Source: Escherichia phage RudolfBernhard_Bas96
Strand: one strand, 5' to 3'
Sequence record: PQ850623.1
DNA length: 64,000 bases
Under the pieces are notes generated by a model. It worked only from the letters and a program-made list of their open reading frames with translations. It did not search any database and had not been told where the DNA came from. A program made the translations under genes and the position numbers. Shown in pieces: positions 31,051-60,012 of this stretch. The stretch's first letter is position 1. Each line of letters opens with the position of its first letter.

Positions 31051-31542
31051 TTACTTAATCTTTTGTATAGCATGGGGTAAGCCATGCTCAATGATATAGG
31101 CATTTCTCGCTTCCAGAGCTTCAACCTCGGAATCAAAATTACCTACAAAGATTCTTTCATTACCATTGCAGATTCTTGCTGACCATTTTTTCTTAGTGGT
31201 ATTTAAACCTATTCCTAAGTAGGTAGCTTTACTGGTTATTCTTTTTCTGGAATTAATGGCCTGAGTTGTTCTAGTTGCCCATCTCAGATTTCCTGGTACA
31301 TACCCCAGTGAACCATCTATTCTGTCTAAAGTAAGACCCAGCCTTTCCCTGTCTGCATAACCATCTAATGACTCTAGATAGGCAGCAAACACTTTGAAGT
31401 CAGAGAACTCTTCTGCTCTAGTTATCCCCCTAGCCCCATAGTTTTTATAACTAGCGTGCTTAGGGTTGTCACATCTCTGTTTAATGGTTAACCATGTGTA
31501 ATACAGAGGATGTAATTCATTACCGAATCTTTTCTTACTCAT
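31051..31542 (-). CDS. HNH-family homing endonuclease with AP2 DNA-binding domain (degenerate HNH)
   Basis: 163 aa; LDRIDGSLGYVPGNLRWAT (HNH_3-like with His replaced) plus C-terminal AP2-like YLGIGLNTTKKKWSARI...FDSEVEALEARNAY; flanked by about 130-145 bp of noncoding sequence on each side. Confidence 0.55.
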   Translation of the reverse strand: MSKKRFGNELHPLYYTWLTIKQRCDNPKHASYKNYGARGITRAEEFSDFKVFAAYLESLDGYADRERLGLTLDRIDGSLGYVPGNLRWATRTTQAINSRKRITSKATYLGIGLNTTKKKWSARICNGNERIFVGNFDSEVEALEARNAYIIEHGLPHAIQKIK

Positions 31543-31674
31543 GTTTGTAACTCCGTTAATAAAAACCGGAGAAAGATTAAGTCTTGGCTCAGGATTGCCC
31601 TCGTCTTTACGTTAGGGGTTTCCCTGAATTCAATCAGTTATCATTAATCATTACTGACTAACGGGCCTTAGTAG

Positions 31675-32010
31675 TTAAGCCTTTTGGGTATTAGCAGATG
31701 GCAATACATATTGGGATTCCAGCATGTCCATCATAAAGGTAGCAGAGTCGATAATGATACCATCAACATCATCTGCCATTTCACCACCAGGTGATGCAAC
31801 ATCAAATGCTTCCCAAATCTGGTATGGGTCTTCAATGTTGTAAGTATTGAACTTGTTACGGAAAGGCAGACGTTTACCTGCTTCAGTATTCAGATAGAGC
31901 CAGCGTTCCTGGTTCCGGATATTACGCAGTGATGCTGATTTACCACTCGCTGAGAATCCTGCGATCAGGATTAGCTGAGTGTTCATATCATTGGAGATTT
32001 CTTCGGACAT
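31675..32010 (-). CDS. N-terminal segment of a split P-loop ATPase (possible exon 1)
   Basis: 111 aa; Walker A GFSASGKS and Walker B-like GIIIDSATF; too short to be a complete ATPase. Confidence 0.45.
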   Translation of the reverse strand: MSEEISNDMNTQLILIAGFSASGKSASLRNIRNQERWLYLNTEAGKRLPFRNKFNTYNIEDPYQIWEAFDVASPGGEMADDVDGIIIDSATFMMDMLESQYVLPSANTQKA

Positions 32011-32066
32011 TATTTTTCCTCGTTTAGTTTAGGAGTCCTTCAAACCAAAGAAAGACTCCTGTTTAC

Positions 32067-34220
32067 TTACTTGCCAGCGAAGCGTTTAGCCACGGTGACC
32101 ATTACGGTTGAATTCAATTCATCATCCGGCAATGGATTAGCCAGTTTCTTATTGAATGAGTAGACGGCTTGCTGTACTTGAGCAAAGTCCCAACCACTGT
32201 CTACTAATGCCAGTGCGTATTTAATCATTTGATTATTACGATTACCGGAGGCAATACGACCAGCGAACCAACGCTCCAGATTGTCTAACGACTGTACTTC
32301 CTTCATCTGGTTCTGGAACTGCTCGTTCTTACTGGTACGGGGAATAAAGTCACGTACATCCAACAGATTCGCATCAAGATTGTAATGATAGGAACCAGTC
32401 TCACAGGACATCCACTTCTTGGCTCGTTGGTTAGCAGACTCATCCGTTTCGAATGGTAGCCAAGCCATAACGTTATTCATGAACTCTTTGTATTCCTCAG
32501 TGTCGAGGTGTAGCTCATAGTTCATTGGAATAATCAGACGGAAGCGGTTCTCTTCTTCAGTATGACGCTTAGTGGTATAGGTCATGAACTTATATTCCTT
32601 CATCAGTTCATGGCACGTATGCAGTGGTACTCCTCCATCACAGTCAATAACAATCATGTTAAATCCTGGGATAACGTTCTCTTCAGAACGATGCCCATTC
32701 TTCATGTGATGGTTAACCCAGTGCATACCGGGAGCTTGGGTTAATACATGTAATTGGTCAAACGGTACTCGTTCACCAACATAGTCATAAGCAAAGCTAT
32801 CACTATATGCCACTATCATCTCATTGGTGTCAGTCTCTTTCAGAGTCTCACCACGGAAGAATTCAATACCCTCATTGAAGGTCTTCTTAATAATGATGTG
32901 CTGTTTGTAACCCCATGCTGTAGCAAGAGTCATCATCTCATTACGAGCTGCATTACCACTCTTATAGAACGGTAATGACTCCAGCAAGTCAGCATGAGTC
33001 ACTTCTTTACCTACGGAGGCAATGTACTTAGCCAGCTTCACATAGGCTTTCTCACGATTGAGAATACCCTGGAATGCTGCCCCGGATTCTTCTACGAGCA
33101 GGATCGCTTGTTTAAGGTGAGACATCTCAATGAATGAACTCTGGTCAACAAACGCTAGTGCACCTGCCAGCTTAAGAGCCTTAAAGTAACGGTGGGAGAT
33201 TTCAGCCTTACGAATTTCTTCGTGGTCAGCCATAGCTTCTGCTTTCTTCTCACAATCAATTTTGTAAGTAATCAGAGCAATTCCCACTGCATCTTCCACA
33301 ACCATCTTAAAACCAAACAGGTTTGGGTCAGCCAGACTATGGAAGTGGTTAGCCCATTTACCAAGGGACTGTACGTTATCCTGCTTAATCAGGTTACGGT
33401 AGATTTCTTCCGGGGTCAGCGTTGCATGTGCTCGCTTGTCTAAATGCCCGATGGCAAACAGACAACGACGTGCATACCCTGTATCAAGGAAATCATAGAA
33501 CTGATCTTCAGTTTGCCCACCATCCAACAGCTTACTCGGAGTACCGAACAGCAGCAGGTTAGCAGGAGTCTTACCATCCAGTTCTTCACCACGAATACTT
33601 TCAGCAGTGTTCTTGGTTAACTTCTGTTTTACTTTCCCCTGGTCATATAACTCAAGGAACAGGTTAAGCACTTCAACGTTGGCAATGAGGTTAGAACCAA
33701 TCTCATCAATCTGTAAGTTAATAGCACCACAACCAGCCATAAGCAGCTTGTGACGAAGCTGTTTTACAGCAGGTGCTGTACCAGAGTCGAATGTGAATGG
33801 GAATGCCCCAGCACGTTTATACTCTGCTTCAACTTTATCGAACTCATCATTCTGGTCAGTACCTTGACGAGCAGCACGTTCGTTAGCAATCTTCCATAAA
33901 CGGTCATTTGCAATGACGGGCATGGTGTCTTCCATAAAACGTTTACGGAAGCCAGTCATGAACCCGTCTTCAATAATATTTACCGAGTGACCTTTACCGA
34001 AACCAGATGTAGCCAACGCCATAGCGTAGATGTTTACCGGCAGGTCACCACGGTCTTTAGTTACGATGGTTGCACCCATGCAGGATGCCATTTTAGCCAA
34101 GAAGTAGGCTACTTCGACACGGAAGAATCCCCGGTCGTTATTCTGGGTTTTATTGCAGAGCACATCTACGATTTCTTCAATCGCCGGATGGTGCACTACT
34201 CCGGTAAGGTCAATACTCAT
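32067..34220 (-). CDS. Primase-like replication protein (putative DNA primase)
   Basis: About 717 aa from ATG 34220, which overlaps the upstream stop as ATGA (track start 34277); large replication-module protein between nuclease and ATPase genes; function by size and position. Confidence 0.35.
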   Translation of the reverse strand: MSIDLTGVVHHPAIEEIVDVLCNKTQNNDRGFFRVEVAYFLAKMASCMGATIVTKDRGDLPVNIYAMALATSGFGKGHSVNIIEDGFMTGFRKRFMEDTMPVIANDRLWKIANERAARQGTDQNDEFDKVEAEYKRAGAFPFTFDSGTAPAVKQLRHKLLMAGCGAINLQIDEIGSNLIANVEVLNLFLELYDQGKVKQKLTKNTAESIRGEELDGKTPANLLLFGTPSKLLDGGQTEDQFYDFLDTGYARRCLFAIGHLDKRAHATLTPEEIYRNLIKQDNVQSLGKWANHFHSLADPNLFGFKMVVEDAVGIALITYKIDCEKKAEAMADHEEIRKAEISHRYFKALKLAGALAFVDQSSFIEMSHLKQAILLVEESGAAFQGILNREKAYVKLAKYIASVGKEVTHADLLESLPFYKSGNAARNEMMTLATAWGYKQHIIIKKTFNEGIEFFRGETLKETDTNEMIVAYSDSFAYDYVGERVPFDQLHVLTQAPGMHWVNHHMKNGHRSEENVIPGFNMIVIDCDGGVPLHTCHELMKEYKFMTYTTKRHTEEENRFRLIIPMNYELHLDTEEYKEFMNNVMAWLPFETDESANQRAKKWMSCETGSYHYNLDANLLDVRDFIPRTSKNEQFQNQMKEVQSLDNLERWFAGRIASGNRNNQMIKYALALVDSGWDFAQVQQAVYSFNKKLANPLPDDELNSTVMVTVAKRFAGK

Positions 34221-35197
34221 GATGGAAAATATCTCTCTCTTTGTTTGCAAATAGATGCGACAGGGCAGTAAAGACATCTTTTAACCTGTCCCTCCACGAC
34301 CTTGATAGCACCCTTGCCACCTTTTTCAGCCATGAAGATACGAGCAGATGCCATATCGTCAAAGTTTTTGGTACTTCTGGCTCCAGGTACATCTACCTTA
34401 GAAGCATCAGAGAAGTATTTGAACTGTGGCTCTGTTCGCCACAACTCCTCGTCAGTACATTCCGGGATTTCCTCTTCCGGTGCATCCCAGTACTTTTCGA
34501 TTAGGTGAATCTTCTCCTCTACCCAACGCTCAGTTTTCTCGACAGACAGCAACGGAATATCCTTATGCATAATGCGATTAGCAGGATAGTTCGGATTGCT
34601 ATTAGCCATGTGTTTCATGAAGTCAGTGAAGATGTAGTTAATACGGATTACATCCTCAGTAATGATGTCGTTGTGAATCCAACGGTACAAGCTGCCTTGC
34701 ATCTTGTGTTCATCATCACGGGAACCAGCAACCCAGGAATAGGTTGAGGTAGACTTGAAGTCTTGTAACAGACCTTCTGTTACGATGTCGAATTTACCAC
34801 CAATAGTCCATCCCTTAACCTGCTTGGTTCCACGCTGTTCAATGTAGATTGGGATAAGGTCAGGATTAGCAGCAAAGTCTGCTTTGGTTGGGTTAATGAC
34901 TACTGCATCAATTACTCGCTGAGGATAACCTAGCTTCTTCAATGCAGTCTTATGGCCTAGCTTCCAGGCTTTCTCGATAGAATCATGTAAGCCAGTACCC
35001 ATTGATGTGGAGACGAAATCCATGACATCAATTGACTGGTCACTAAAATCTACACGATGCTTCATGACGATTTGCTTAATAGGCTTAAGCAATGTAGTAG
35101 CAGACAGGTACTTAGGATTGTCTACGTAATCGTACTCATCATGTAATAGCCATACAGCCAGAGCCAGTGAGACATCATGATTGTTGGTTACCTTCAT
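34217..35197 (-). CDS. PD-(D/E)xK-type nuclease with C-terminal Cys cluster (RecB/Cas4-like)
   Basis: 326 aa; GKFDIVTEG...QDFK fits a D...(D/E)xK core; C-terminal CLYCPVASIC. Confidence 0.4.
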   Translation of the reverse strand: MKVTNNHDVSLALAVWLLHDEYDYVDNPKYLSATTLLKPIKQIVMKHRVDFSDQSIDVMDFVSTSMGTGLHDSIEKAWKLGHKTALKKLGYPQRVIDAVVINPTKADFAANPDLIPIYIEQRGTKQVKGWTIGGKFDIVTEGLLQDFKSTSTYSWVAGSRDDEHKMQGSLYRWIHNDIITEDVIRINYIFTDFMKHMANSNPNYPANRIMHKDIPLLSVEKTERWVEEKIHLIEKYWDAPEEEIPECTDEELWRTEPQFKYFSDASKVDVPGARSTKNFDDMASARIFMAEKGGKGAIKVVEGQVKRCLYCPVASICKQRERYFPS

Positions 35198-35459
35198 TGT
35201 AAGCCTTTTTCAATATTCGATTAGCATAATGCACAATCTTCTCTGAGTCGTACACCGAAGAGTTACCTGGTTTACCATTACCCATACGGGCAGCAGCATT
35301 TCGCCATAGAGCTTTAAAGGCACAACCTTCATCGAAGGTCATGCCCAGTGCTTGGATAATATCCTCACACTCTGCTTGATATGGCTCTTGCTCTTTCCGT
35401 TGGGGATTCTTAATTAAAACTACATAGTAGTTATTAAGACCACCGGAGAGCTTAGTCAT
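35175..35459 (-). CDS. Hypothetical protein
   Basis: 94-aa ORF; coupled to neighbours (overlapping stop/start). Confidence 0.4.
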   Translation of the reverse strand: MTKLSGGLNNYYVVLIKNPQRKEQEPYQAECEDIIQALGMTFDEGCAFKALWRNAAARMGNGKPGNSSVYDSEKIVHYANRILKKAYNEGNQQS

Positions 35460-35764
35460 TATTCCCCCTTGGGAATCATGTTTGCCTGGAACTCTGGTTC
35501 AGACATCAGACCCAGGTTGCTAAGAGACAGATAAACAATATCTTTCAGGTCAACTGAGGTGTCGAAACGCTGGTCCAGACTAATCTTCAGGGAGTGATTG
35601 ACACGGGCCAAATCTTTATAAGTCACATGAGGTTCGTCAGTGAGCAGCATTGTATTCATGGTAAGCAGGGAACCATCATCTGCTTTAGGAAGCTGGAAGA
35701 TTACCTGTGCTGCCACCATCCAATGATACTTTTTGACGACGGTTTCTTTAGTACTTTTAGTCAT
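35459..35764 (-). CDS. Hypothetical protein
   Basis: 101-aa ORF; ATGA-type overlap with the DNA polymerase gene. Confidence 0.4.
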   Translation of the reverse strand: MTKSTKETVVKKYHWMVAAQVIFQLPKADDGSLLTMNTMLLTDEPHVTYKDLARVNHSLKISLDQRFDTSVDLKDIVYLSLSNLGLMSEPEFQANMIPKGE

Positions 35765-38340
35765 GCGAATGCCTTTTGAATTATTTGATTAACTTCTTCT
35801 GGGGTAGCGTGATTTGGAATCTCAATCTCGTTAGCCCACGTTGGGTAAAACAAGGATAGTTCCCCACCCAAACCAACTTCTGGATGAGCAATATCAGGAT
35901 GGTCTTGCCAGTTAACGGCTTTAACCAAGTGCTTGTTCGTGTACTGCAAGGTATCCATGTTGTCACGAATCATGAAGTACTGAGCATCATGAATGTGAAT
36001 ACTAGGACGTATATCTAATCTGAACTCACTGGCTCTGACTTTACGCATAAATTCTGAACCAGCACGGTTATTCAGTAGACACCAGCTTTGTCCCAAGGCA
36101 TTACCAGCAGTTCTACCTTCAGCCTCTGCTTCATATGGAGTCTTACATGTCCCACGTAAAACCTGAGCCAGTAAAGGAGTACGCACTCTCAAACCAAATG
36201 CAGCAGTTATATATCCAGTCTTGGCAGCTTCGTCTAGCTTAGCCTGAACCCACATATCACTAACTACATAGAGGTCGTGATAACGTTTCTCTGTTGTTTT
36301 AGCTTTCTCTTCTGAGAAGCCACAGTTTTTCATCAAGCCCATGTACGTGCCACCATAGGTAAGCAAGAATGTTGGGGCTTTAGAATCACTACGCAAGTGC
36401 TTGTACTTCGTCTGAATAGAATTAATTGACTCAACTGTATCTACAATATCTGGCATCTGCTCACCGAAGTAAGCATACGCACGAAGACTATGCCCATCGT
36501 AACCATCGGTATACACCTTAAGTTTCTGAGGGTCTTTCGTAGTCAATGCAGATATTCTGTCTTCCAGTGAGGCGAAGTCCAAACCGCAAAATATCCAGCC
36601 AGGAGGGGCTTCGAAGCATTTCTTAATCTTCTTGGCATATTTAGAACCGGATGGAATTGTTTGTAGATTTGGCTCTGAAGCCGATAGCCTACCGGAGACT
36701 GTGCCTCCCAGATTGAGGTTGCCGAACAGATAGTGCCAGCCATCCGGCCCCGGTTGGGCATTCCTGAAAGCTGGTATAAAACTAGTGATAATCTTATCCA
36801 CGAGTTTATAGTCGATAAGTGCATTGAGCAGTTCCTTAACATCTTCACTCTGCGTATGTGTACGCAGTGCTTTAATAGTGTCACCGTCAGTAGCAGGTTG
36901 CTTGCTCTTAGTAAGACTAAGAACCGGTAAACCAATGTAATCAAATAACAGTTTCTGTAATTGTGGACCGGAGTTAGGATTAAACTCGATGTCACAATCA
37001 GCCAATGTTACCTGCTTCTTCTTAAGCTTAGCATTCTTATCGTCTACCCATTCCTGACGAAGCATCAGGGTGAAATTCTTCATGAGCTTAGACTCACGAA
37101 TAGTTTTCAAAGCCTGGTTCCTGTCAGTTTCCATTTCTTCAGCCACTTGGTTAACGGTTTCCATATTCATAGGCATACCGGTTAACTGCATCTGAATAAT
37201 GTCTTCACAGGCTGGTTTAAAGATGTTGTTGTAAACATCCAGTTGATCGTCAGCAATGAGAGTATCCCAGTGCTTCTCGTAGGTGTACCACGTACACAAA
37301 CCATCAATGAGGTTGTAGCGTAACAGTTGCTCATTAGGAATAAGACGTATGTCTTTAATATCATCCTGAGCGTAGTTACCTGCATACTCCTGAGCCTGGT
37401 CTTTCAGACTAAGGTGATTACCAGCACAACTGTTAGTAGCCAGGTAGGTGATTAACTTAGTACAGTCCCAATTACGTAGCATGATTTCCATGCCATGCAG
37501 TAAGCCTTCTGTATCAATCAGGTTATCCATGAATAACTGATAGATAAGTATGTACACGTCATAGCTAATGTTGTGATACATCTGCCGTTGAGTGTATTTA
37601 ATGAAGAACTCACGCAATAGGTTACGAACAACATCATTCCTGTTGATACGCCCATAAGGAGCTTCAGTAGCCCCCTTAATTGGCTCGTAGTCCACATTAA
37701 AAGCTATGCCTTGTGTCTTACTCCAACAGAATGTAATCGTTCCTATGCCTGCGTTATAGTGCTTTAAACCGAAGGATTCGATGTCTATAGCCAGAGGCTT
37801 ATTCATCTCAAGCAACTGGTCTAGCCAGGCTTTAATCTTTTCGGGTGTATCTGGGTAGGCCTCAAACTCAATGATTCCCTGACCTGGTTCAGCATACTGT
37901 CCACGAATGTGGTTAAGTAATGCATCCATACCCTGAGCAATCTTAGCTTTTACTACGGGTGGGTCGTAAAAGACCTGTCTGTAGCTGGGTGTATAGATAA
38001 CCTTCTGCTTACCCCATACTGAGTCACAAACATAGCCGAGGTTAGCCTCTGCTTTAGCTTCTTTAGTCAGTATTTTGAAATAGTCAGAATCGGTACAGAT
38101 AATGTACTGAGTCTCTGCATCGTCCAGTACTTGTTGCAGTTCCTGCTGTATGAACTCCTTAATCTCCCTTGCAGGAGTCTTCTTCTTGCCTGGGGCAGAA
38201 TGAAGTTCAAGGAAGATGAAATCTTCCATACTTAGGTCATAAGGCAGCAGGTAGGTTTTAATCATCTCCTCCCTTCGGATTTGATGACCGAGGATAGCAA
38301 TAGGATACTTGCCAGTATCCTGAGAGGTGATGTAACGCAT
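35761..38340 (-). CDS. DNA polymerase, family A, with 3'-5' exonuclease domain (N4 gp39-like)
   Basis: 859 aa; exo motif AIDIESFGL; Pol A motif A LDFASLEDR, motif B KAPTFLLTYGG, motif C IHDAQ. Confidence 0.85.
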   Translation of the reverse strand: MRYITSQDTGKYPIAILGHQIRREEMIKTYLLPYDLSMEDFIFLELHSAPGKKKTPAREIKEFIQQELQQVLDDAETQYIICTDSDYFKILTKEAKAEANLGYVCDSVWGKQKVIYTPSYRQVFYDPPVVKAKIAQGMDALLNHIRGQYAEPGQGIIEFEAYPDTPEKIKAWLDQLLEMNKPLAIDIESFGLKHYNAGIGTITFCWSKTQGIAFNVDYEPIKGATEAPYGRINRNDVVRNLLREFFIKYTQRQMYHNISYDVYILIYQLFMDNLIDTEGLLHGMEIMLRNWDCTKLITYLATNSCAGNHLSLKDQAQEYAGNYAQDDIKDIRLIPNEQLLRYNLIDGLCTWYTYEKHWDTLIADDQLDVYNNIFKPACEDIIQMQLTGMPMNMETVNQVAEEMETDRNQALKTIRESKLMKNFTLMLRQEWVDDKNAKLKKKQVTLADCDIEFNPNSGPQLQKLLFDYIGLPVLSLTKSKQPATDGDTIKALRTHTQSEDVKELLNALIDYKLVDKIITSFIPAFRNAQPGPDGWHYLFGNLNLGGTVSGRLSASEPNLQTIPSGSKYAKKIKKCFEAPPGWIFCGLDFASLEDRISALTTKDPQKLKVYTDGYDGHSLRAYAYFGEQMPDIVDTVESINSIQTKYKHLRSDSKAPTFLLTYGGTYMGLMKNCGFSEEKAKTTEKRYHDLYVVSDMWVQAKLDEAAKTGYITAAFGLRVRTPLLAQVLRGTCKTPYEAEAEGRTAGNALGQSWCLLNNRAGSEFMRKVRASEFRLDIRPSIHIHDAQYFMIRDNMDTLQYTNKHLVKAVNWQDHPDIAHPEVGLGGELSLFYPTWANEIEIPNHATPEEVNQIIQKAFA

Positions 38341-49341: not shown

Positions 49342-49554
49342 TTACTCATCTAAAGCTTTACGAACGTAACCACGTACTGAACGATAGCTTTCTTTTGCAG
49401 TTACAGTTCGTCCATCAATGAGATGAATTACAGCACCAGCCGGAGTTTCATCTACATCTACTACGTTAGTTGCAACAATAGTTTTACGCTGGGTACTGTC
49501 AACAGGAGTTACTTGAAATACAGACATGTTGTTTCCTTTAGGCATTTCTGCCAT
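49342..49554 (-). CDS. Hypothetical protein
   Basis: 70-aa ORF. Confidence 0.4.
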   Translation of the reverse strand: MAEMPKGNNMSVFQVTPVDSTQRKTIVATNVVDVDETPAGAVIHLIDGRTVTAKESYRSVRGYVRKALDE

Positions 49555-50104
49555 GGTTGGGGTTATAACCGAAAAGTATTTCGGCTTCTTTTCTTGTGGC
49601 TACTGCGTCATCTAACTCAGCAAACCATCCCAGGTGGATTTTATTCCCATTATCATAAATGGAAACATTCCATAAATTATGACGTTTACTATAGCTTACT
49701 CCGTGGTAACCACTTGTATTATTCGAGCTTAATGCCCTATTTTTTAAGTTATCTGACCTTGACCGGCTAAATAAATTAAAATGCCTGTTATTAGTGCGTA
49801 CACCATCATCATGGTCTATATCTTCTGGCTCAGTACCATGAAGCATTTTCCAGATAATACGGTGAGCATAGTAAAACTCACCATTTAATGTTCCGCGCAA
49901 ATAACCATTTTTAGATAATGAGGCTAGTGCAGGTTTCCCTGCCCATGCAGAATTCCATACATTAGCTACATGTTCTGGACTTCTTAGTGGGTTGCTGTTA
50001 AATGTCCACTCTGGTCTTACCTTCCAGGTTAATCCCCCAGTTAGTGGGTCATAATCTAAGCAAGCTAGTAACAACAAGCGATTTGGTAAAACCTTTGCTT
50101 TCAT
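49538..50104 (-). CDS. HNH homing endonuclease with AP2 domain
   Basis: 188 aa; HNH core IDHDDGVRTNNRHFNL and AP2-like GYHGVSYSKRHNLWNVSI...GWFAELDDAVATRKEAE. Confidence 0.7.
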   Translation of the reverse strand: MKAKVLPNRLLLLACLDYDPLTGGLTWKVRPEWTFNSNPLRSPEHVANVWNSAWAGKPALASLSKNGYLRGTLNGEFYYAHRIIWKMLHGTEPEDIDHDDGVRTNNRHFNLFSRSRSDNLKNRALSSNNTSGYHGVSYSKRHNLWNVSIYDNGNKIHLGWFAELDDAVATRKEAEILFGYNPNHGRNA

Positions 50105-50107: not shown

Positions 50108-50614
50108 TTACTTACTTTCCCTAGCCTCTACCGGCATATTCGGTTGATTATTGTACTTGCCATTGTAATTAGCAGGCTCTTGAACCAGATGAAATAATAC
50201 TTGAGCTATCCCAGCACCAGCCGGGATATGCAGTTTCTTGCGACCTTGATAGACCAGTTCGAGGGTAAGATACCCTTTCCATCCTGGTTCTATTACGGTA
50301 TTGAACACTGATAATGCACGCCTTGCCCAGGTAGATTTATCGTGAACGATTGCTACACAGGAAGGGGACATGTTGAACTTCTCAATTGCTGAAGCCAATG
50401 CGAATTTACCGAAGTGGCGTTTAACAACCCCAGCATCGACAGTCTTCACCATTGGAATCAACCCAAATAAGCGATAGAAGGTGATGTCTTGTTTGATACG
50501 AATATCATAACCGGCTTCACCTAATCCATAACTTACACCATGCTCGGATACCTTACGGTCTGGTACATCCAGCAATTGAGATGAACGGTATAGAGAATTA
50601 CCATTAACAACCAT
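50108..50614 (-). CDS. dcd: dCTP deaminase-like (dUTPase superfamily)
   Basis: 168 aa; VIEPGWKGYLTLELV resembles the dCTP deaminase/dUTPase signature. Confidence 0.5.
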   Translation of the reverse strand: MVVNGNSLYRSSQLLDVPDRKVSEHGVSYGLGEAGYDIRIKQDITFYRLFGLIPMVKTVDAGVVKRHFGKFALASAIEKFNMSPSCVAIVHDKSTWARRALSVFNTVIEPGWKGYLTLELVYQGRKKLHIPAGAGIAQVLFHLVQEPANYNGKYNNQPNMPVEARESK

Positions 50615-51789
50615 TATTTCATTCCTTTAGGGATGTGAACTACCCCCCCAAAAGGTACGGTAGCATTAGGATTATTCAGAACACACCAGATGATAGGGAT
50701 ATCAAATGGCAATTCTTCCATTGGACGAACATACATATCGGAGAATACGATTGCAGCGGTTGGCTTATTCTTAATAATCCATTCACGCACTGGCTCAAGG
50801 TTTGTGCCACCACGACCAGTAATCTTAATCTCTTCAAAAGTATCTTCTTCAGTGATGTCTATTTCTTCTTGGATAATATCGTCGAAGGTAATAAGGGTCA
50901 TCTTCTTAGGATTGAACTGGCTCTTAACGTAGGCAACCTCTGAGTTAAAACGCAGAGAGTCAGCACTACTAATAGAACCAGATACATCCTCAAAGTAGGC
51001 TAAGTGTCGTAAGCGTCCTTCATCATCTTCCAGCGATGGTAGATAGATATCAGTGAAACGACGGTTAGGTCTGGCCCACGTATAGTGTGTATCATCAATG
51101 TCGGTAAAGAAGTTCAGCAGGACTTCCTGCCAAGGAACCACTGGTTTAAGGAATTGGGTAATTACCTCTTCCATACGACCAGCACCCTTACCTGGCATCA
51201 TTCCACCAGCCATCTTCTGGCTTTGCATTGCACGAACTACGTTGTTGACAACAGCGCCCTGGGACTGCCCCGAAGAGGGGGCTTTCATGTCGCCAGCAAG
51301 ACCTGCTCCAGCACCCCCTGACGGCTTCTGCCTTTTCTGAGGGTTCTTCATCAAGTCGTCGTAGATGTCTTCTTCGACCCATCCTTTATATTGAGGATCT
51401 TTGCAAATGCCTTCGTCAATACCGGTGAACTTGTAACCATCCTCTTCTAACTGAAGGTTAATGAAGTGGTCACATGCCTGGTTCCAGACTTCCGGGTCAC
51501 GGCTTCCACGACGGATGCCATGTAGATATGCCACATGCCAGAGTTCGTGCATTAGCACTGTTTCTCTTGTATCGGGACACATCCATATAAAGAAGTCTGG
51601 GTTGAAATGGAGTTCTATCCCATCAGTACATGCAGTGGGACAGTCTTCACGTTTCCATGAGAACTTAAGACTACACAGCAGTGAACCAAAAAACGCTGCA
51701 CTACGTCCGAGAAAGGCGTTAGCTTGGATCCTGTCGTACTCACGCATGAGTTGTTCATCACTAAGTGTGTGCTGAGGTATCTGGTTCAT
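50614..51789 (-). CDS. VWA-domain protein with N-terminal HExxH metallopeptidase-like motif
   Basis: ATG at 51789 (track start 52023 overlaps the AAA gene by 227 nt); HELWHVAYLHG motif; MIDAS-like DVSGSIS. Confidence 0.5.
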   Translation of the reverse strand: MNQIPQHTLSDEQLMREYDRIQANAFLGRSAAFFGSLLCSLKFSWKREDCPTACTDGIELHFNPDFFIWMCPDTRETVLMHELWHVAYLHGIRRGSRDPEVWNQACDHFINLQLEEDGYKFTGIDEGICKDPQYKGWVEEDIYDDLMKNPQKRQKPSGGAGAGLAGDMKAPSSGQSQGAVVNNVVRAMQSQKMAGGMMPGKGAGRMEEVITQFLKPVVPWQEVLLNFFTDIDDTHYTWARPNRRFTDIYLPSLEDDEGRLRHLAYFEDVSGSISSADSLRFNSEVAYVKSQFNPKKMTLITFDDIIQEEIDITEEDTFEEIKITGRGGTNLEPVREWIIKNKPTAAIVFSDMYVRPMEELPFDIPIIWCVLNNPNATVPFGGVVHIPKGMK

Positions 51790-51796
51790 GTTGTGA

Positions 51797-52849
51797 TTAT
51801 CCGTGAATGTAACGAGAGATATTGGCAGCAGCCTTACGCCACTCAGGGGTAGCCTGAATTTCTGGTAATGCTCTGCCCACTGTACGGAAGTACAGAATCT
51901 TATGGGTGAACGTTTTAAAGCGTTCAATGTACTGAAGAACATCTGTGAAGTTATCTTCAGTAGTTTTGTTAGCCAGATGGTTAACGGTAGCCCAACACAG
52001 GTTATTATCTTCAGGCAATGCACAGCCCAGAGGGTCTTTGACTACCTTCTCAATCGTAATCATACGATTGTATACCTGAGTGAACTGAACAAACTCTACG
52101 GCCTTACCTGGTGTAACAAAACCGCTGTAGTACAAGGAATCTTCATCAGGCAGAGCACCTTCTGGTTGGTTCTTGAGGTCTTTGTTAATGAAGTCCCAGG
52201 TACGTGGGCAGCAGAATGTCTTGTTCTTATGGGCGGGGTCGAAGTCGTGTAGATAGCCAGGGTTAGCATGTAAGAATGCAACCAGACGCTCATCCCATTC
52301 TTGCGGAATCATTACGTCTTCAACAAAGATGTCGAAGTTAAGTTCCATTTCAAAGTGAACAACACGAGACTGCATTGCAGTACCCAGTGGGTTAACGATA
52401 GCACGGTCAGTAGCTTTGTTACCGGCACAGATAATCATCACATTAGGGTGAAGTTTTTTCTGTCCAGTCATACGGTCTAGAATCAGTTTGTATGCAGCAG
52501 CTACTACTTCTTTCTTAGCTGAGTTGAACTCATCAAGGAACAGGAGCCAGCCATTATAACCTTCTGGTACTTCATCCCCCTCGATAGGGAATAAGTCAGC
52601 AAAGGGAATAAACTCTGCACGGTCACCTTTACGGAATGGTAGACCAGACAAGTCTTCCGGGGCAGAAGTAGACAGACGATGGTCAATCAGCTTCATACCA
52701 AATTCTTCTGCAACAGAACGAATAATTGCAGACTTACCCATGCCTGGTGATGAAGTCAGGAATGGTACGTTACCTGCTTGCAAGGCACGGATAATAAAGT
52801 TACGGGCTTGGCGTGTATTACATACAGTCAAGGAGTCAATGCTCGCCAT
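51797..52849 (-). CDS. AAA+ ATPase (MoxR-like, paired with the VWA protein)
   Basis: 350 aa; Walker A SPGMGKS, Walker B LLFLDEFN. Confidence 0.6.
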   Translation of the reverse strand: MASIDSLTVCNTRQARNFIIRALQAGNVPFLTSSPGMGKSAIIRSVAEEFGMKLIDHRLSTSAPEDLSGLPFRKGDRAEFIPFADLFPIEGDEVPEGYNGWLLFLDEFNSAKKEVVAAAYKLILDRMTGQKKLHPNVMIICAGNKATDRAIVNPLGTAMQSRVVHFEMELNFDIFVEDVMIPQEWDERLVAFLHANPGYLHDFDPAHKNKTFCCPRTWDFINKDLKNQPEGALPDEDSLYYSGFVTPGKAVEFVQFTQVYNRMITIEKVVKDPLGCALPEDNNLCWATVNHLANKTTEDNFTDVLQYIERFKTFTHKILYFRTVGRALPEIQATPEWRKAAANISRYIHG

Positions 52850-54597: not shown

Positions 54598-54792
54598 GTT
54601 GTTGATGTGGTAAATCCAGTAAGCTATCCAACCGGCTAATACAAAACATCCGGCAGAGTATGCTCCATAGTAGCAATAGGCAAACTTGGATTTGTGGGCG
54701 TTAACTATAGTGAGTATCATAATAGCAGATAAAACTATCAGTACAGTTTTAGTAATAACATCATAGATGTCTGGCATGTTGACTACCTCCAA
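54595..54792 (-). CDS. Small membrane protein
   Basis: 65 aa; two hydrophobic helices. Confidence 0.45.
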   Translation of the reverse strand: MEVVNMPDIYDVITKTVLIVLSAIMILTIVNAHKSKFAYCYYGAYSAGCFVLAGWIAYWIYHINN

Positions 54793-54829
54793 GCAAAAAA
54801 TAAAAGCCCCATACCCGAAGGTATGAGGC
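54793..54829 (-). terminator. Rho-independent terminator after RNAPII genes
   Basis: 10-bp stem (one mismatch) with CGAA loop; TTTTATTTTTT on the - strand. Confidence 0.7.
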
Positions 54830-54836
54830 CAGTTTA

Positions 54837-56054
54837 TTAACTTAATGCATAGTCTGTTTCAAGAATGTCCTGCCAGAGGCTGTCATCCAGCTTACCAGCG
54901 GAGAACTCTTGTCCCAGTACCTGAGACAGGATGAAGCCCAGCAGGTCACTCTTAGCAATGTCAGACAGAATCTGATTGTACTGACGACGCAAGTCATTGC
55001 CATAGTTAGGGTGGCAACGGAAGCAGTCATGTACAGTCATTACAGGGAATGGTTTCTTAGGCATGGTATTGAGCGTAGCCATGATTACATCTGTATCAAC
55101 CAATGCAATCGTTACTGAGTCCAGATAATCAAAGATACGGGTAGACAGGAATCCCGACTTCTCATAGTTAGTCCACAGTGTGTTAACCATTTCATAGTTA
55201 TCATTGGAGCCAACCATGTAATCACTGGTTCCTTCGCAGAGGGACTTAATATAGTTCACCTGGTTCATGCTGAAGTTACAACGACGTAGCATCTCGCGTA
55301 CCACCATCCCATCAATAGAGTGGGTGATGTTAGCAGATAGCATACGGGTCTTTTCTTCAGTACCCTGAACCATACGAGTGATATCGAATGGTTTACCTAA
55401 GAAGTTAACAGTCTGTACTTCAGGAACCATGACCTTAATGACAGCGTGGAAGTTGTCAGGCAGTACCCATACGTAACGGTTAGCATCCGGGTTGCCACAT
55501 TGCAGTAAGAACTTGTTCAGTGCCCAAGGACCACTAGCAACAGTTTTCATTACATTCTCAAAAGTCTTGATACGGATACCTTCACCGAATACTTCTTTCG
55601 GCTTAGCTTCTGAACCATAGAATGCAGTCATAACTGCCTGCTTAGTATCACTACGTTTAATACGAGATGCTTCTCCAAGGATGTCCAGCATCTTGTGGTA
55701 GATAACTGTGTAAGCATCACGACGTAATGGCTTACCATTCTCTCCCATGTAGTTAACTACGTTACACAGTTCAGCAGCAGAACGGTCACCAGTCAGGCAA
55801 GCCAGTAACTGTAAGCCAGATGATGTAGCATCCAGAGCTACGGCATAACCGATAGGCTTACCGGCTTTCATATCTTTCCATGCGTTTACACCAGCGTAGA
55901 ACAGCGCAGATTCTTCAGCTTCATCTACCAGATTGAACAGGTTAGCTTCATTCTCGTCGAACCAGCTAATACGTTCATCCCATGTCTTCTTATCCAGACC
56001 GTAAGAGTTCGCAATATCAATTTTTAAATACTCTTTAGCTGTGAAAATCTGCAT
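54837..56054 (-). CDS. N4-type RNA polymerase II large (catalytic) subunit, T7-like
   Basis: 405 aa; T7 RNAP motif A-like DATSSGLQLLACL, motif B KQAVMTAFYGS, motif C VHDCF. Confidence 0.75.
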   Translation of the reverse strand: MQIFTAKEYLKIDIANSYGLDKKTWDERISWFDENEANLFNLVDEAEESALFYAGVNAWKDMKAGKPIGYAVALDATSSGLQLLACLTGDRSAAELCNVVNYMGENGKPLRRDAYTVIYHKMLDILGEASRIKRSDTKQAVMTAFYGSEAKPKEVFGEGIRIKTFENVMKTVASGPWALNKFLLQCGNPDANRYVWVLPDNFHAVIKVMVPEVQTVNFLGKPFDITRMVQGTEEKTRMLSANITHSIDGMVVREMLRRCNFSMNQVNYIKSLCEGTSDYMVGSNDNYEMVNTLWTNYEKSGFLSTRIFDYLDSVTIALVDTDVIMATLNTMPKKPFPVMTVHDCFRCHPNYGNDLRRQYNQILSDIAKSDLLGFILSQVLGQEFSAGKLDDSLWQDILETDYALS

Positions 56055-56055
56055 C

Positions 56056-56637
56056 TTAGGCTCCTAGTTTCCACTTATATCCGTATACTTGTGCATACGT
56101 ACCATTAATTACTTGATTAATATTAGAAGGTATACCATTAACACTTCGTGCAGCAGCACTAAGTGAATGGAACGTCTTAATGTATTCGCCATCTAGTGAG
56201 TACTGCTCAACAGGCTTAGCTGATTTAGTATTGATGCCATTAATTGCATCAGAGTAGTACCTCTTTACGTTGGTATTAGCTGTAACAATACGAATGTTAT
56301 CCAAGGAATAACCTTTGTAATCATCCAACCTGTCTAAGCTAGGCTTCAAGGCAGTTGGATAATCTTCTAATACCCACTTGTCATACAATGTGTGAAATTC
56401 TTTGTTTGAATATACCCATTTCTTTAGCTCCTCCTTAGTGAAGGACACAGGAGTAAATCCTTTCTTCTTGGTTCTACTAATAGAATTGGAGTACATTTGA
56501 TTAATGACCCCATGTTTTGAACGGGTAAAGCGTTTAAGGCAGTCTTTACAGTCTGCCCTTACACCTTGTTTGCCAGTGGACTGTTTATTGAACATGTCCA
56601 GAGGCAAGTTCTTCTTACATACTGAACATGTCTTCAT
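56056..56637 (-). CDS. Homing-endonuclease-like protein inserted between RNAPII subunit genes
   Basis: 193 aa; N-terminal Cys cluster CSVCKK...CKDC, central YSLDNIRIV, C-terminal repeated DNA-binding-like modules; sits exactly between the two RNAPII genes. Confidence 0.4.
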   Translation of the reverse strand: MKTCSVCKKNLPLDMFNKQSTGKQGVRADCKDCLKRFTRSKHGVINQMYSNSISRTKKKGFTPVSFTKEELKKWVYSNKEFHTLYDKWVLEDYPTALKPSLDRLDDYKGYSLDNIRIVTANTNVKRYYSDAINGINTKSAKPVEQYSLDGEYIKTFHSLSAAARSVNGIPSNINQVINGTYAQVYGYKWKLGA

Positions 56638-56638
56638 A

Positions 56639-57457
56639 CTAATCCTCGTTTACTAGTTCTTTATCTGCAAATTCAATCACTGCCTTGTTGTAGGATGTCC
56701 CTTGAAAATTAATATGGTATCCACAGGCATAGGTTCTGCCCCTCTTGTCATACTTATGCGCTAGTGAGAAGTTATTGCCTTCCTGAGTCACTAATTCCAT
56801 TACTTCTTTAGCAGTACGACTGTACTTCTCAAAGGCTTTAACTCGTTTCTCATAGTCCTGACGGGTTTCACCCTCTTTGGGTTTATCCATATTAGGACGA
56901 GAGTCTTTTACATAGTTAGCAACGTCCCAGTTAATACAGAGGCGTTGGTTGTTCATACGGTTGATGTGGTCAAGGCAGACGTCCATCTCATGATGGTTCT
57001 TCTTGAGGATGATGCTTCCTTTAGTCTGGTAGTAACCAGTATCCCTGTTAGTTCTGACGGGATTGGGAGCACTTACTATAGGTAATGGATACTGGAATGC
57101 TTCCAGTTCCATCTGAACATCTTCACTAATCTCATAGATAACACCGAACTTGTCGATGGTAGGGTCATAGTTGAAGCAGTCATTCTCTGCCATCTTATGC
57201 AGACAGTCAGCGATGTACTGAGCATCATCTGAGTGACTCATGAGAGAGCCAATCATAGTCTGGATGTCAGCACGTTTATGTAGGGCAATCTGCACCATTG
57301 CATCAATGAGCAGCTTATAATCAATATCTAAATAGGCAGCGAATGCCTTAAAGTCAATTTCTTTGGAGTCCTCGAATTCCTTCCTCATGCGAGGCAGTAA
57401 TTGATTTTTATTGAATAGGACTTCAAGCTGCTTCTGATGTTCAATAGATGAGTACAT
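56639..57457 (-). CDS. N4-type RNA polymerase II small (N-terminal) subunit
   Basis: 272 aa; GGAGA RBS; assignment by adjacency to the catalytic subunit and N4 gp15/gp16 arrangement. Confidence 0.5.
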   Translation of the reverse strand: MYSSIEHQKQLEVLFNKNQLLPRMRKEFEDSKEIDFKAFAAYLDIDYKLLIDAMVQIALHKRADIQTMIGSLMSHSDDAQYIADCLHKMAENDCFNYDPTIDKFGVIYEISEDVQMELEAFQYPLPIVSAPNPVRTNRDTGYYQTKGSIILKKNHHEMDVCLDHINRMNNQRLCINWDVANYVKDSRPNMDKPKEGETRQDYEKRVKAFEKYSRTAKEVMELVTQEGNNFSLAHKYDKRGRTYACGYHINFQGTSYNKAVIEFADKELVNED

Positions 57458-57488
57458 CGCATATTCTCCAATTAGTTAATTACCACAA

Positions 57489-57501
57489 GGTGCGGAGCAC
57501 C
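57489..57501 (-). promoter_or_regulatory. Candidate vRNAP early-promoter hairpin GGTGC-GGA-GCACC
   Basis: Perfect 5-bp inverted repeat around a GGA triloop on the template (+) strand, 38 nt upstream of the RNAPII small-subunit start. Confidence 0.5.
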
Positions 57502-57505
57502 CTTC

Positions 57506-57856
57506 TTATGACCAGTAGTTGTAAGCATCACCTAAGTGTTTACGCCATGCTTCAGGTAACAGTACATTGCCAGTAACATTATTGAACAGGTATGGGTCCA
57601 GAAAGTCATCTCCCATTACTTTGAAATCCCACTGTGGATTAGTAGATGCATAGGAAATAAAGCCTTCAACGAAGCCATAGATAGCACCCTCTTTAATTCG
57701 GTTACCATTGCCATCCCTTACTGGAATGGCAAAGCTATTACCATAATGACCGTAGGCCATACCCCAACGTGCACCGTGCTTCTTATAGGCTAACTTGGCA
57801 GCAGCATTGGTATGCTGACCTAATGTGTTAGTAGTGAATACGAAGATTTCTTTCAT
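57506..57856 (-). CDS. Hypothetical early protein with Gly-rich Rossmann-like N-terminus
   Basis: 116 aa; IFVFTTNTLGQHTNAAAKLA...GNSFAIP pattern. Confidence 0.45.
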   Translation of the reverse strand: MKEIFVFTTNTLGQHTNAAAKLAYKKHGARWGMAYGHYGNSFAIPVRDGNGNRIKEGAIYGFVEGFISYASTNPQWDFKVMGDDFLDPYLFNNVTGNVLLPEAWRKHLGDAYNYWS

Positions 57857-57859
57857 TAG

Positions 57860-58240
57860 TTACCCTTTTGGATTTTCTACAAAATAGTTATACATAGCCC
57901 GAACGAGCTTCTCTTTAATAACCTCACCATGACATGGTTTCGGATAACAGAAGCATTGTAAGGCTAGGCCTTTTTCATCAATGGCTTTATTACCAAGACG
58001 ATTGAGTTCATCCAGTACAACTGGATTACCTTTATCAATCTGTTCTTGCAGCCAGACTTTATACTTAGCAATTACTTGCTCTCTGGTTCCATGCTTACCA
58101 ATGACGAATGGATTGCCTAACGGTGAGCCACGACCAATGTACTCACCGTATTTACCGTGATGTTTATTAACAATGATAATCGGACGTGCGGATATACCCA
58201 ACAGAGCATTGGTGTTATCACCTAATGAGATAGTTTTCAT
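57860..58240 (-). CDS. DUF4326-like protein
   Basis: 126 aa; GNPF motif and LQCFCYPKPCHG Cys/His motif as I recall DUF4326. Confidence 0.4.
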   Translation of the reverse strand: MKTISLGDNTNALLGISARPIIIVNKHHGKYGEYIGRGSPLGNPFVIGKHGTREQVIAKYKVWLQEQIDKGNPVVLDELNRLGNKAIDEKGLALQCFCYPKPCHGEVIKEKLVRAMYNYFVENPKG

Positions 58241-58551
58241 GGTTTAAGTACCTGAAATGCGAATACAGGGCGTTTACTACGCCATTGATTCATAGCCAGT
58301 TCACTGGCAGGAGAGCCATCATGTAAGTCATATATGAATGTAATCATATACTCTGGTTTCTCTGGGAAGTTCTCTGTAGAGAATGGTAGACCTGCTTCCT
58401 TTAATACAGGAACCAGTGGTGATTTGGCTTCACAGTAAATAGTGAACTCTTCATTGAATGCTTTACTAGTCTGAGATACATAATCAATATTACGCATCAT
58501 CTTATCGACATCAGTAAATGTATTATCATGTACTACTACAATGTTATTCAC
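58237..58551 (-). CDS. Hypothetical early protein
   Basis: 104 aa; ATGA overlap with both neighbours. Confidence 0.45.
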   Translation of the reverse strand: MNNIVVVHDNTFTDVDKMMRNIDYVSQTSKAFNEEFTIYCEAKSPLVPVLKEAGLPFSTENFPEKPEYMITFIYDLHDGSPASELAMNQWRSKRPVFAFQVLKP

Positions 58552-58805
58552 TCTACTTTCTCCAGGGTTAGGTATACTGTATTTGGTTGAGGTACATAGT
58601 CACAAAAACCAATTTCCTCTTGTCTGCCACTAGACTTCCAAATACAGTTTTCGGTTAGCTTAGGCTTTCTACTAAATCCAATTAGTGAGGCATTCTTACT
58701 CTTCTGGGGACGAGGTAATAAGGCTACATATTTAACCCATAATGGGACTTCAATAGTTTGCCCCATATAGTTAAATGATTTAGTTACAGGGAATGTAATA
58801 ATCAC
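58548..58805 (-). CDS. Hypothetical early protein
   Basis: 85 aa; ATGA overlaps. Confidence 0.45.
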   Translation of the reverse strand: MIITFPVTKSFNYMGQTIEVPLWVKYVALLPRPQKSKNASLIGFSRKPKLTENCIWKSSGRQEEIGFCDYVPQPNTVYLTLEKVE

Positions 58806-59023
58806 TTTTGGTATCCTTGTATATAGTTAATACGGCGAATACGCTGAGTAGATGCCTTAACAGCCATCTGCTGATTCTCTTCTTTATGCTGATTCTTTAA
58901 CAACTTATCCCATTCTTCCTGGTTCCGTTGTTTCTGCAATATACGACTACAACGCTTATGATTGGCAACTCCACGTCCTTTCTTACAGACTGGGCAGATA
59001 CCATAATCGCTCGTGTACATCAT
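58802..59023 (-). CDS. Small Cys-containing basic protein
   Basis: 73 aa; CPVCKK...HKRC; Lys/Arg/Gln-rich C-terminus. Confidence 0.4.
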   Translation of the reverse strand: MMYTSDYGICPVCKKGRGVANHKRCSRILQKQRNQEEWDKLLKNQHKEENQQMAVKASTQRIRRINYIQGYQK

Positions 59024-59328
59024 TGGCTTAAAGCCTCCATTAATATTTTACGAATAACGTTAACATCAGATTCAGTACCAATTAAACCAACAGGTTTCTT
59101 TGTACTATCTGTGACAAAGGATGCAATCCTTTCCATCTCTGCTGTAATTAATTTGTCACCACTAATAAGACGATTACGAAGGTAGGCTTCATAAGCTACT
59201 TCTATATCCTCTACTGTGGTTCTTTCATTACGAGTGAATGGATTACTTAATGGGAAGGGTAAATGTATCCGTATATTCCTGTCAGCTACCTTAGCTAAGT
59301 GAGGAAGTATACATACTATTTCATTCAA
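59020..59328 (-). CDS. Hypothetical early protein, weakly DUF4326-like
   Basis: 102 aa; PLSNPF...VAYEAYLRNRL parallels the GNPF...KYKVWL block of 57860-58240 but lacks the Cys/His motif. Confidence 0.4.
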   Translation of the reverse strand: MNEIVCILPHLAKVADRNIRIHLPFPLSNPFTRNERTTVEDIEVAYEAYLRNRLISGDKLITAEMERIASFVTDSTKKPVGLIGTESDVNVIRKILMEALSQ

Positions 59329-59365
59329 GGTTCTTTCTCCTATTTAAATACATATCTAACTATTC

Positions 59366-59403
59366 AAAAATAAAAAATAGGAGCCTCCTATTGGAGGACT
59401 CCT
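59366..59403 (-). terminator. Rho-independent terminator
   Basis: Imperfect stem AGGAGCCTCC/GGAGGACTCCT; ATTTTTTATTTTT on the - strand. Confidence 0.6.
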
Positions 59404-59405
59404 TA

Positions 59406-59534
59406 CTATTTAATACATGGGTGATTGAAGGTAACAATCTTACGTACTGGTTCAGATGCCTGTTTCTTAGCAGCCAGACGTTCTTTCATCTTCTGTACGT
59501 CAGATTTATTACCTAAAATAAGTGATTTACGCAT
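59406..59534 (-). CDS. Small basic ORF (42 aa), unannotated in the ORF track
   Basis: ATG at 59534 with AAGGA RBS 9 nt upstream; Lys-rich product MRKSLILGNKSDVQKMKERLAAKK...; ends right at the terminator hairpin. Confidence 0.25.
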   Translation of the reverse strand: MRKSLILGNKSDVQKMKERLAAKKQASEPVRKIVTFNHPCIK

Positions 59535-59538
59535 TATA

Positions 59539-60012
59539 TTAATCCTTACCATGATTAGAGTGGAAACCATATTCATTGTTAGCTAACTCTCTAGCTTCTA
59601 CAGCTTCGTCGAAAGTGTTGAATCTACCTAAATGCTTTAGCTTACCATTAATCTTTATACGAACTCTCCATTTACCAGCTTCATATCTTACTCCCGTTGC
59701 ACCCGACATATTATTAGAAGCTCTACTTCTATTACGATTGTTATCTTGGGAAGATACTGCCCTTAGGTTTTCTAAACGGTCATCTGTTCGTATGTGATTG
59801 ATATGGTCAACCATATAACCGTCAGGCAATTTACCGTTGTGCATTTCCCAGATTATAGTAGCTGCCTTAAGATGTCGGTATTTTACTTGGACATATACAT
59901 ATCCACTGTACGTGTCGAAACTTCCAGCAATATCCCCACTTTTAGCTCTGCCACTACTAACCTTCCAGTAGAGTTTGCCTTCACGGTAGGAGAAGAATTC
60001 ATGCCAGTCCAT
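59539..60012 (-). CDS. HNH homing endonuclease with AP2 domain
   Basis: 157 aa; HNH core VDHINHIRTDDRLENLR; AP2-like GVRYEAGKWRVRIKINGKLKHLGRFNTFDEAVEAR. Confidence 0.7.
   Translation of the reverse strand: MDWHEFFSYREGKLYWKVSSGRAKSGDIAGSFDTYSGYVYVQVKYRHLKAATIIWEMHNGKLPDGYMVDHINHIRTDDRLENLRAVSSQDNNRNRSRASNNMSGATGVRYEAGKWRVRIKINGKLKHLGRFNTFDEAVEARELANNEYGFHSNHGKD

Follow-up and report, generated by a model that had tools for sequence, protein, structure and literature searches.

Three endonuclease-like genes of two lineages

The window, the whole 64,000-nucleotide (nt) stretch of Escherichia phage RudolfBernhard_Bas96 that was analysed (PQ850623.1), harbors three small open reading frames on its minus strand: ORF1 (31051-31542), ORF2 (49538-50104) and ORF3 (59539-60012), encoding 163, 188 and 157 amino acids (aa), respectively. 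An earlier note had placed HNH/AP2 homing endonuclease genes at these positions, and this is borne out in that each gene combines a beta-beta-alpha-Me-type N-terminal domain with a C-terminal AP2 domain. The three are very probably independently acquired homing-endonuclease genes of two lineages, joined in the window by a fourth, conserved one. ORF1 lies in a group I intron within a homolog of gp44, and ORF2 and ORF3 would be free-standing homing cassettes.

By its sequence, the window is a G7C/PhAPEC7-like Gamaleyavirus. A 23.5-kb stretch that includes two of the three ORFs is 90-94% identical to Gamaleyavirus Escherichia phages (N4-like, Schitoviridae), the closest match being PhAPEC7 (93.8% over 95% of the query), and the identity of the nearest catalogued phage to the window is no higher than about 94%. 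A 3605-aa ORF at 13803-24620 encodes the virion RNA polymerase characteristic of these phages. Compared with G7C, the backbone is 92-96% identical over most of its length and is interrupted by 11 private segments, among them the intron, ORF2 and ORF3. All three loci are present in some relatives and missing from others, which is usual for genes of mobile endonucleases.

A Pfam HNH_3 domain (PF13392; cut-off 24.8 bits) is present in ORF2 (E = 1.7e-12, 47.2 bits) and ORF3 (E = 2.9e-17, 62.5 bits). ORF1 gives no match at all in Pfam and lacks the catalytic His; its matches are confined to PHROG families that bear the label HNH endonuclease (phrog_374, E = 3.8e-39). The HNH core attributed to all three genes in the earlier note thus stands for ORF2 and ORF3, and for ORF1 only at the level of these labels. 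The AP2 domain directly follows HNH_3 in ORF2 and ORF3, where single sequences score under the Pfam cut-off (E = 0.077 and 0.012, respectively), and is confirmed by a profile of 36 members of the ORF2/ORF3 type, which matches the plant AP2 proteins WRI1 (E = 5.5e-08) and TEM1 (E = 1.4e-05). The same profile matches the catalytic core of I-HmuI (1u3e, residues 25-117, E = 2.3e-07). ORF2 and ORF3 adopt an I-HmuI-like fold, and a three-stranded sheet packed on a helix, the AP2 fold, is found in all three ORFs. The C-terminal DNA-binding region of I-HmuI itself differs from that of these AP2-type ORFs.

ORF2 and ORF3 are recognizably related by BLASTP (36% identity, E = 3e-21). ORF1 resembles ORF3 in the AP2 part only (E = 0.001) and gives no significant match to ORF2, but a profile of the ORF1 family reaches ORF3 over both the beta-beta-alpha-Me core and AP2 (E = 7e-12). 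These comparisons indicate that the common architecture reflects distant homology and that the three, which the earlier note called paralogs, are not close paralogs. Moreover, the relatives of ORF3, ORF2 and ORF1 are each tied to their own site (gp6, the position after the dCTP deaminase gene, and the gp44 intron, respectively). The genes are therefore independent acquisitions from the phage endonuclease pool, with two lineages and three separate histories. Their supposed location beside replication and nucleotide-metabolism genes is correct for ORF2, which follows the dCTP deaminase gene, and for ORF1, located in gp44 between the primase and SSB genes, although ORF1 lies within an intron interrupting a replication gene rather than next to one. 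ORF3 is surrounded by small early genes.

A group I intron interrupts gp44

The ORFs flanking ORF1, at 31675-32010 (with Walker A) and 30462-30905 (listed with a TTG start), are the two halves of a homolog of gp44, a Sak4-like/AAA_24 ATPase that is uninterrupted in G7C and most relatives, where the insert is absent. With one choice of junctions, the last base of exon 1 is U, that of the intron is G, and the reading frame of G7C gp44 is recovered exactly. This choice defines exon 1 (31678-32010, minus strand, as are all parts of this gene), with the Walker A part of the ATPase, an intron of 796 nt (30882-31677) and exon 2 (30462-30881), which does not open with a start codon at the junction. 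The predicted ligated junction reads AAGGCU|UGGGGAG, and the spliced product would be 250 aa long and colinear with G7C gp44 (...TQKA|WGDF...). The terminal GGCU of exon 1 (...AAGGCU|) forms P1 with GGCC of the intron, including the U.G pair at the splice site.

The 5' arm of the intron (31543-31677) comprises the 3' strand of P1 with the internal guide sequence, P2, P3, P4, P5, the 5' strand of P6 and a hairpin; the 3' arm (30882-31050) comprises the 3' strand of P6, P7, P7.1, P7.2, P3', P8, P7', P9, P9.1, P9.2 and the terminal G. ORF1 occupies the P6 loop, with its stop codon directly against the 3' strand of P6. In every copy, the ribosome-binding site of ORF1 (GGAG) is located within the 3' strand of the hairpin just upstream of the start codon, from which we infer that the hairpin regulates ORF1 translation. 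P7.1 and P7.2 are a mark of subgroup IA, and point to this subgroup for the gp44 intron. P2, P7.1 and P7.2 are among the features used for classing group I introns (PMC3984707).

At the gathering threshold, an Rfam search of the whole window reported only a tRNA; the intron was seen with permissive filters on a 1.2-kb stretch. Intron_gpI (RF00028) then gives a partial match on either side of ORF1, one scoring 48.4 bits (E = 5.7e-11), the other 32.3 bits (E = 3.9e-06). Neither attains the 50 bits of the gathering threshold, as the match is broken up by the 492-nt ORF in P6.

The fold was examined by covariation in eight divergent intron copies, aligned with MAFFT after each ORF had been replaced by an artificial AAAA linker. 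The canonical topology (P1, P2, P3 forming a pseudoknot with P7, P4-P6, P7, P7.1, P7.2, P8, P9, P9.1 and P9.2) was written by hand since RNAalifold cannot draw the P3/P7 pseudoknot and mis-paired P4-P6. Over 70 pairs in 14 helices, 97.1% of the cells are standard-paired, compared to 30-40% when partners are slid by 1-3 columns, and compensatory double changes are found at 38 of the 70 pairs; slid controls give 4-11 such pairs, and none of 500 shuffles attained the observed values. RNAalifold alone gives 37 compensatory pairs out of 69. Two of the four P7.1 pairs and five of the six P7.2 pairs are compensatory. P4, P5 and P6 are invariant in the counted columns. By eye, covariation is also visible in P5a and the third P6 pair, which fall out of the MAFFT register and were excluded from the count. 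P1 covaries with the exon (GGCU/GGCC, AGCU/GGCU, GCGU/GCGC) and keeps its U.G pair in all eight copies. All eight inserts are 794-824 nt long, follow a U and end in G, and their removal leaves an ATPase frame of 240-251 aa. Covariation thus supports the group I intron fold, and the compensatory pairing of core helices in such divergent copies implies continuing selection for it.

Group I introns are known in N4-like phages (PMC5746245; bioRxiv 10.1101/542787), and those in g16 of G7C-like phages have been shown to be spliced (bioRxiv 10.1101/542787). An intron-like insertion that does not splice and gives two translated halves also exists in G7C-like phages, in g39 of phage 10Gb (bioRxiv 10.1101/542787). 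The 796-nt gp44 insert might likewise have lost splicing, with gp44 made as two polypeptides; the annotation of gp44 as two separate ORFs in the SP5M and PW8 records and the Rfam scores under the gathering threshold would fit this. We hold it to be improbable. The core helices have kept their pairing by compensatory changes in the eight copies, the U at -1, the U.G pair and the terminal G are present in all of them, P1 covaries with the exon, and the start of exon 2 has neither an ATG nor a ribosome-binding site, the TTG at 30905 falling within the intron. In the RefSeq record of PhAPEC7, the halves are already joined and a "putative intron" is mentioned. If the gp44 insert is accepted as a spliced intron, annotations of the Gamaleyavirus group should show gp44 as a single spliced gene instead of the two hypothetical ORFs given in SP5M and PW8.

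Distribution of the intron and of the ORF1 lineage

Among about 50 Gamaleyavirus records matched, the insert is carried by three phages, SP5M, PhAPEC7 and PW8 (five records, with RefSeq/GenBank duplicates). More distant ORF1 homologs (43-83% identical), on N4-like contigs of 22-84 kb, all lie within the same split gp44 site. Exon 1 ends with ...CAAAAGGCU| in the four intron-bearing phages and with ...CAGAAAGCC| in G7C, where the intron-less junction is ...CAGAAAGCC|TGGGGAGAC... The Ala codon at this position is GCC in 13, GCT in 10, GCA in 4 and GCG in 1 of 28 intron-less junctions from IMG/VR. The exact AAGGCT|TGGGG context is found in three of the 28; compatible empty sites thus exist.

The ribozyme arms, and the 5' arm taken separately, are 99.3-100% identical among the four Gamaleyavirus copies, those of PhAPEC7 being 100% identical to the window's, in flanks that are 90-97% identical. 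The P4-P6 core shares exact matches of up to 33 nt with Twort-like Staphylococcus phages. In Vibrio phage 1.097.O (MG592470.1, 1783-2974), a free-standing ORF1 homolog (45% identical) directly follows a gp44-like AAA_24 gene (intact, 243 aa), whose end it overlaps. This arrangement matches the proposed route of free-standing endonucleases into introns (PMC3984707). A further ORF of this phage, at 3731-4198, has a faint AP2 match.

ORF1 belongs to a conserved family lacking the catalytic His

ORF1 (31051-31542, minus strand) encodes an endonuclease-like protein with a His-less beta-beta-alpha-Me-like domain, whose motif residues are D73-R74...Y81...N85...Q94...N97. In the predicted model (predicted local distance difference test, pLDDT, 93.5), a strand at 71-74, a strand at 86-89 and a helix at 91-96 are followed by the AP2 domain. 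The LDRID sequence in place of the catalytic His had been read in the earlier note as a sign of a degenerate copy. The motif is indeed present, and a comparison of the ORF1-family profile with I-HmuI (E = 0.12) aligns it residue by residue: D73 with D74, R74 with H75, N85 with N87, Q94 with N96 and N97 with N99. In an alignment of 40 ORF1 homologs, down to 34% identity, R74, Y81, N85, Q94 and N97 are invariant and D73 is nearly so. The Arg in LDRID is therefore a trait of the family and not a defect of the window's copy. The window's ORF1 differs from the consensus of SP5M, PW8 and PhAPEC7 by 16 synonymous and 2 nonsynonymous codons, which indicates purifying selection. Invariance of R74 and purifying selection together rule out a decayed copy. 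The premature stop in this lineage is that of PhAPEC7 (NC_024790.1), whose ORF1 has W88* plus D76G, A95T and E144K; because of this stop only a 264-nt "restriction endonuclease" coding sequence is annotated there. LDRID proteins should thus not be written off as decayed HNH genes.

PacI is a His-Me finger enzyme without the His, which uses a loop Tyr instead (PMC5714182, PMC4081073). Y81 of ORF1 is in the equivalent loop, which is no more than a lead. A Foldseek search with the ORF1 model did not recover PacI, and the two Cys4 zinc sites of PacI can be ruled out, the family alignment having a single conserved Cys (C24). We suggest, with considerable doubt, that the ORF1 family (D-R...Y...N...Q...N plus AP2, at least 338 members) comprises active His-less intron-encoded homing endonucleases, perhaps using the Tyr as base or nucleophile as in PacI. 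This would make it an unrecognised catalytic variant among homing endonucleases. The lineage, intron-encoded in many N4-like phages and free-standing in the Vibrio phage, would also be a natural system for the entry of endonucleases into introns.

ORF1 may instead be no nuclease but a dead beta-beta-alpha-Me/AP2 protein that binds DNA or RNA, maturase-like or a regulator, with the intron immobile or moved by other means, a possibility to be taken seriously even if it is not the likeliest outcome. It agrees with the replacement of the general-base His by Arg and with a Gln matching I-HmuI Asn96, both seen throughout the 40 homologs aligned, and with the missing Pfam HNH match; two His-Me finger groups that have neither the His nor a substitute Tyr are regarded as inactive (PMC5714182). 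Purifying selection speaks for a function of some kind and does not specify which. The nuclease activity and chemistry of the ORF1 family are the question of wider interest here.

ORF2 follows a recoded end of the dCTP deaminase gene

ORF2 (49538-50104, minus strand), a free-standing I-HmuI-type HNH gene with AP2, is inserted between the stop codon of gp26, the dCTP deaminase (DCD) gene, and gp27, whose ribosome-binding site is kept immediately behind the ORF2 stop. Across 36 sequences of the family, D97, H98 and N122 never vary, and N106, N110 and N119 hardly do; D97 and H98 correspond to D74 and H75 of I-HmuI, and N122 to conserved Asn positions (PMC12724721). In ORF3, the corresponding residues read from the sequence are D69-H70, N82 and N91. 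Both proteins thus retain the D-H...N...N catalytic residues and are predicted to cleave DNA.

Directly upstream of ORF2, the last 42 nt of gp26 (50108-50149, minus strand) are identical to G7C at 26 positions (62%), compared to 426/465 (92%) in the rest of the gene, and the C-terminus of gp26 is YNNQPNMPVEARESK in the window where G7C has YQNQEDKPVAARSSK. This recoded end is a candidate former target region that has now diverged. No gene is found at the ORF2 site in the four relatives inspected (G7C, Mimir124, SP5M, PhAPEC5), no phage record covers 80% of the region, and identity to the best ORF2 match in the phage collection is 46%. A copy with 98% identity is present in metagenomes. Relatives with 62% and 68% identity likewise come directly after a DCD gene, in one case within another order of genes. 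The ORF2 lineage follows the DCD gene in every case examined, across different backbones.

"HNH endonuclease" labels at ORF2-site matches in relatives were considered as possible ORF2 copies and rejected, as they belong to the VWA-like gene gp25. In several relatives this label (PHROG 1314) on gp25 looks like a mis-annotation. The gp25 ORF called mechanically in the window (50614-52023, minus strand) begins at a GTG and has 469 aa, about 78 codons more than the 391 aa of G7C gp25. It also runs into the end of gp24, so that translation of gp25 probably begins at an internal codon.

ORF3 lies between two copies of the start of gp6

ORF3 (59539-60012, minus strand), of the same free-standing I-HmuI-type HNH and AP2 organization, is inserted after codon 10 of gp6. 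Upstream of it, 30 nt of the original gp6 5' end remain (60014-60043, minus strand), identical to the empty site of ST4. Downstream, gp6 now starts with a recoded duplicate of these 30 nt (59505-59534, minus strand), 21/30 identical, and the two start peptides compare as MRKSLILGNK and MRKSLIMGTK. The next three 30-nt blocks of gp6 are 29/30, 30/30 and 27/30 identical. U1G and PGN829.1 have the cassette at the same site, with a 98.1% identical protein; the site is empty in ST4, and G7C has a different HNH gene nearby.

HNH proteins are also credited with packaging and other roles in phages (PMC3592412, PMC5304195), and ORF2 and ORF3 might serve the phage by degrading host or competitor DNA, by helping packaging or by AP2-type regulation rather than being selfish. 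Such a role is highly improbable for genes that are not adjacent to the terminase gene, are present or absent among close relatives, resemble I-HmuI in both sequence and fold, and each adjoin a recoded stretch of a neighbouring gene, the ORF2 lineage moreover following one host gene across backbones; each of these traits is characteristic of homing genes.

A fourth endonuclease gene and other features of the window

A fourth endonuclease-like gene, at 56056-56637 (minus strand), was not on the list of endonuclease genes in the earlier note. Its N-terminal part, an endonuclease VII/HNH-like domain, matches PHROG 1035 "endonuclease VII" (E = 2.5e-30), and a NUMOD1 domain is recognized by Pfam (E = 1.7e-07); the ORF1-family profile matches it weakly. 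The gene is located between those for RNAP1-B (RNAP1 subunit B) and RNAP2, in synteny with the ST15.1 HNH endonuclease gene of G7C, of which (gp15.1) it is the homolog. Unlike ORF1, ORF2 and ORF3, it is thus also present in G7C. The other HNH genes of G7C (gp2.1, gp24.1, gp41.1 and gp47.1) are missing from the window, so that of the four endonuclease genes of the window and the five of G7C a single one is common to both. With backbones 92-96% identical, this indicates a fast turnover of the endonuclease gene set.

Relative to 26536-27575 of G7C, some 790 nt are lacking from the gp41 region of the window (35175-35459, minus strand), which retains a 94-aa ORF but neither the HNH gene gp41.1 nor the whole of gp41.

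Other observations concern the region next to the virion RNA polymerase gene. An ORF at 24957-25484 (minus strand) contains a Tad2-like domain (Thoeris anti-defence 2; PF11195, E = 3e-24) and falls in a 1.3-kb segment (24658-25952) without a G7C counterpart. About 2.2 kb at 26000-28200 (minus strand) are devoid of any long ORF. An Rfam tRNA match is found there at 26411-26495 (minus strand, 54.4 bits); its acceptor, D and T arms are good, but its anticodon arm is about 13 nt overlong, and ARAGORN makes no call. A weak tRNA-Sec-like match at 26998-27073 (31.7 bits) is under the gathering score. G7C lacks 26406-26636 and 26820-27789.

Proposed homing of the three elements

In a mixed infection, ORF2 and ORF3 would cut or nick the endonuclease-less allele of a related phage near their own insertion points, that is, at the 3' end of the dCTP deaminase gene for ORF2 and at the gp6 5' end for ORF3. 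Repair from the genome that carries the endonuclease would then copy the gene into the cut allele. The carrier would be immune through its recoded adjoining sequence; recoded junctions would be expected if the endonuclease had its target at these places and the carrier needed such immunity. The gp44 ribozyme would splice itself from the mRNA so that gp44 is still made, and ORF1 would be the mobility protein of the intron, or would formerly have been so.

The analysis itself establishes the gene structures, the domain folds with their catalytic residues, the insertion polymorphism, the recoding at the junctions, the covariation-supported intron fold and purifying selection on ORF1; DNA cleavage, target sites, homing and actual splicing are inferred. 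Several points weigh against this interpretation. As the g39 insertion illustrates, sequence class alone is not proof of splicing, and neither partial Rfam match to the intron reached the gathering score. The high identity of the ribozyme arms fits both recent spread and constraint and is not counted as proof of homing. Finally, with Arg for the general-base His and Gln for the metal-binding Asn96 of I-HmuI, ORF1 may not be a nuclease.

Comparison with known systems

Dispersed genes for HNN/HNH-AP2 endonucleases, gained and then decaying, have been known in phages since 2007 (PMC2248197), and AP2 is listed as a DNA-binding module of the I-HmuI group (PMC5714182). The closest known relatives of ORF2 and ORF3 are I-HmuI/HNH_3 (His-Me finger group 2) and the "HNN-AP2" genes (PMC5714182; PMC2248197). 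I-HmuI is encoded in an intron whereas ORF2 and ORF3 are free-standing. As in intronless or collaborative homing (PMC3984707, PMC2790892), they form intergenic or gene-edge cassettes beside a diverged stretch.

The gp44 intron resembles those of T4 td/I-TevI, SPO1/I-HmuI, Twort and cyanophage Pf-WMP3/I-PfoP3I in having its ORF in a peripheral loop (PMC3984707, PMC3428280), and shares with phage group I introns a conserved replication gene as host, the U at position -1, the G at its end and a P1-P9 core that includes P7.1/P7.2. Its protein, without a catalytic His, is unlike the canonical HNH, GIY-YIG or LAGLIDADG enzymes, and differs from PacI (His-Me finger group 20) by its AP2 domain and the absence of two Cys4 zinc sites. 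The ORF1 lineage, being found both in the gp44 intron and free-standing, is reminiscent of the invasion of introns by endonuclease genes (PMC3984707, PMC2790892), although the Vibrio case is a single locus. The putative intron of PhAPEC7 gp44 is the same element, at 97% identity, with a premature stop in the ORF that is intact in the window.

The kinds of element involved are thus already known, and the gp44 intron was flagged in PhAPEC7. What appears new is the support for this intron by covariation and its spread across divergent N4-like genomes, the exact anatomy of the junctions of the ORF2 and ORF3 cassettes, and the LDRID family, which is a conserved His-less variant rather than a product of decay.

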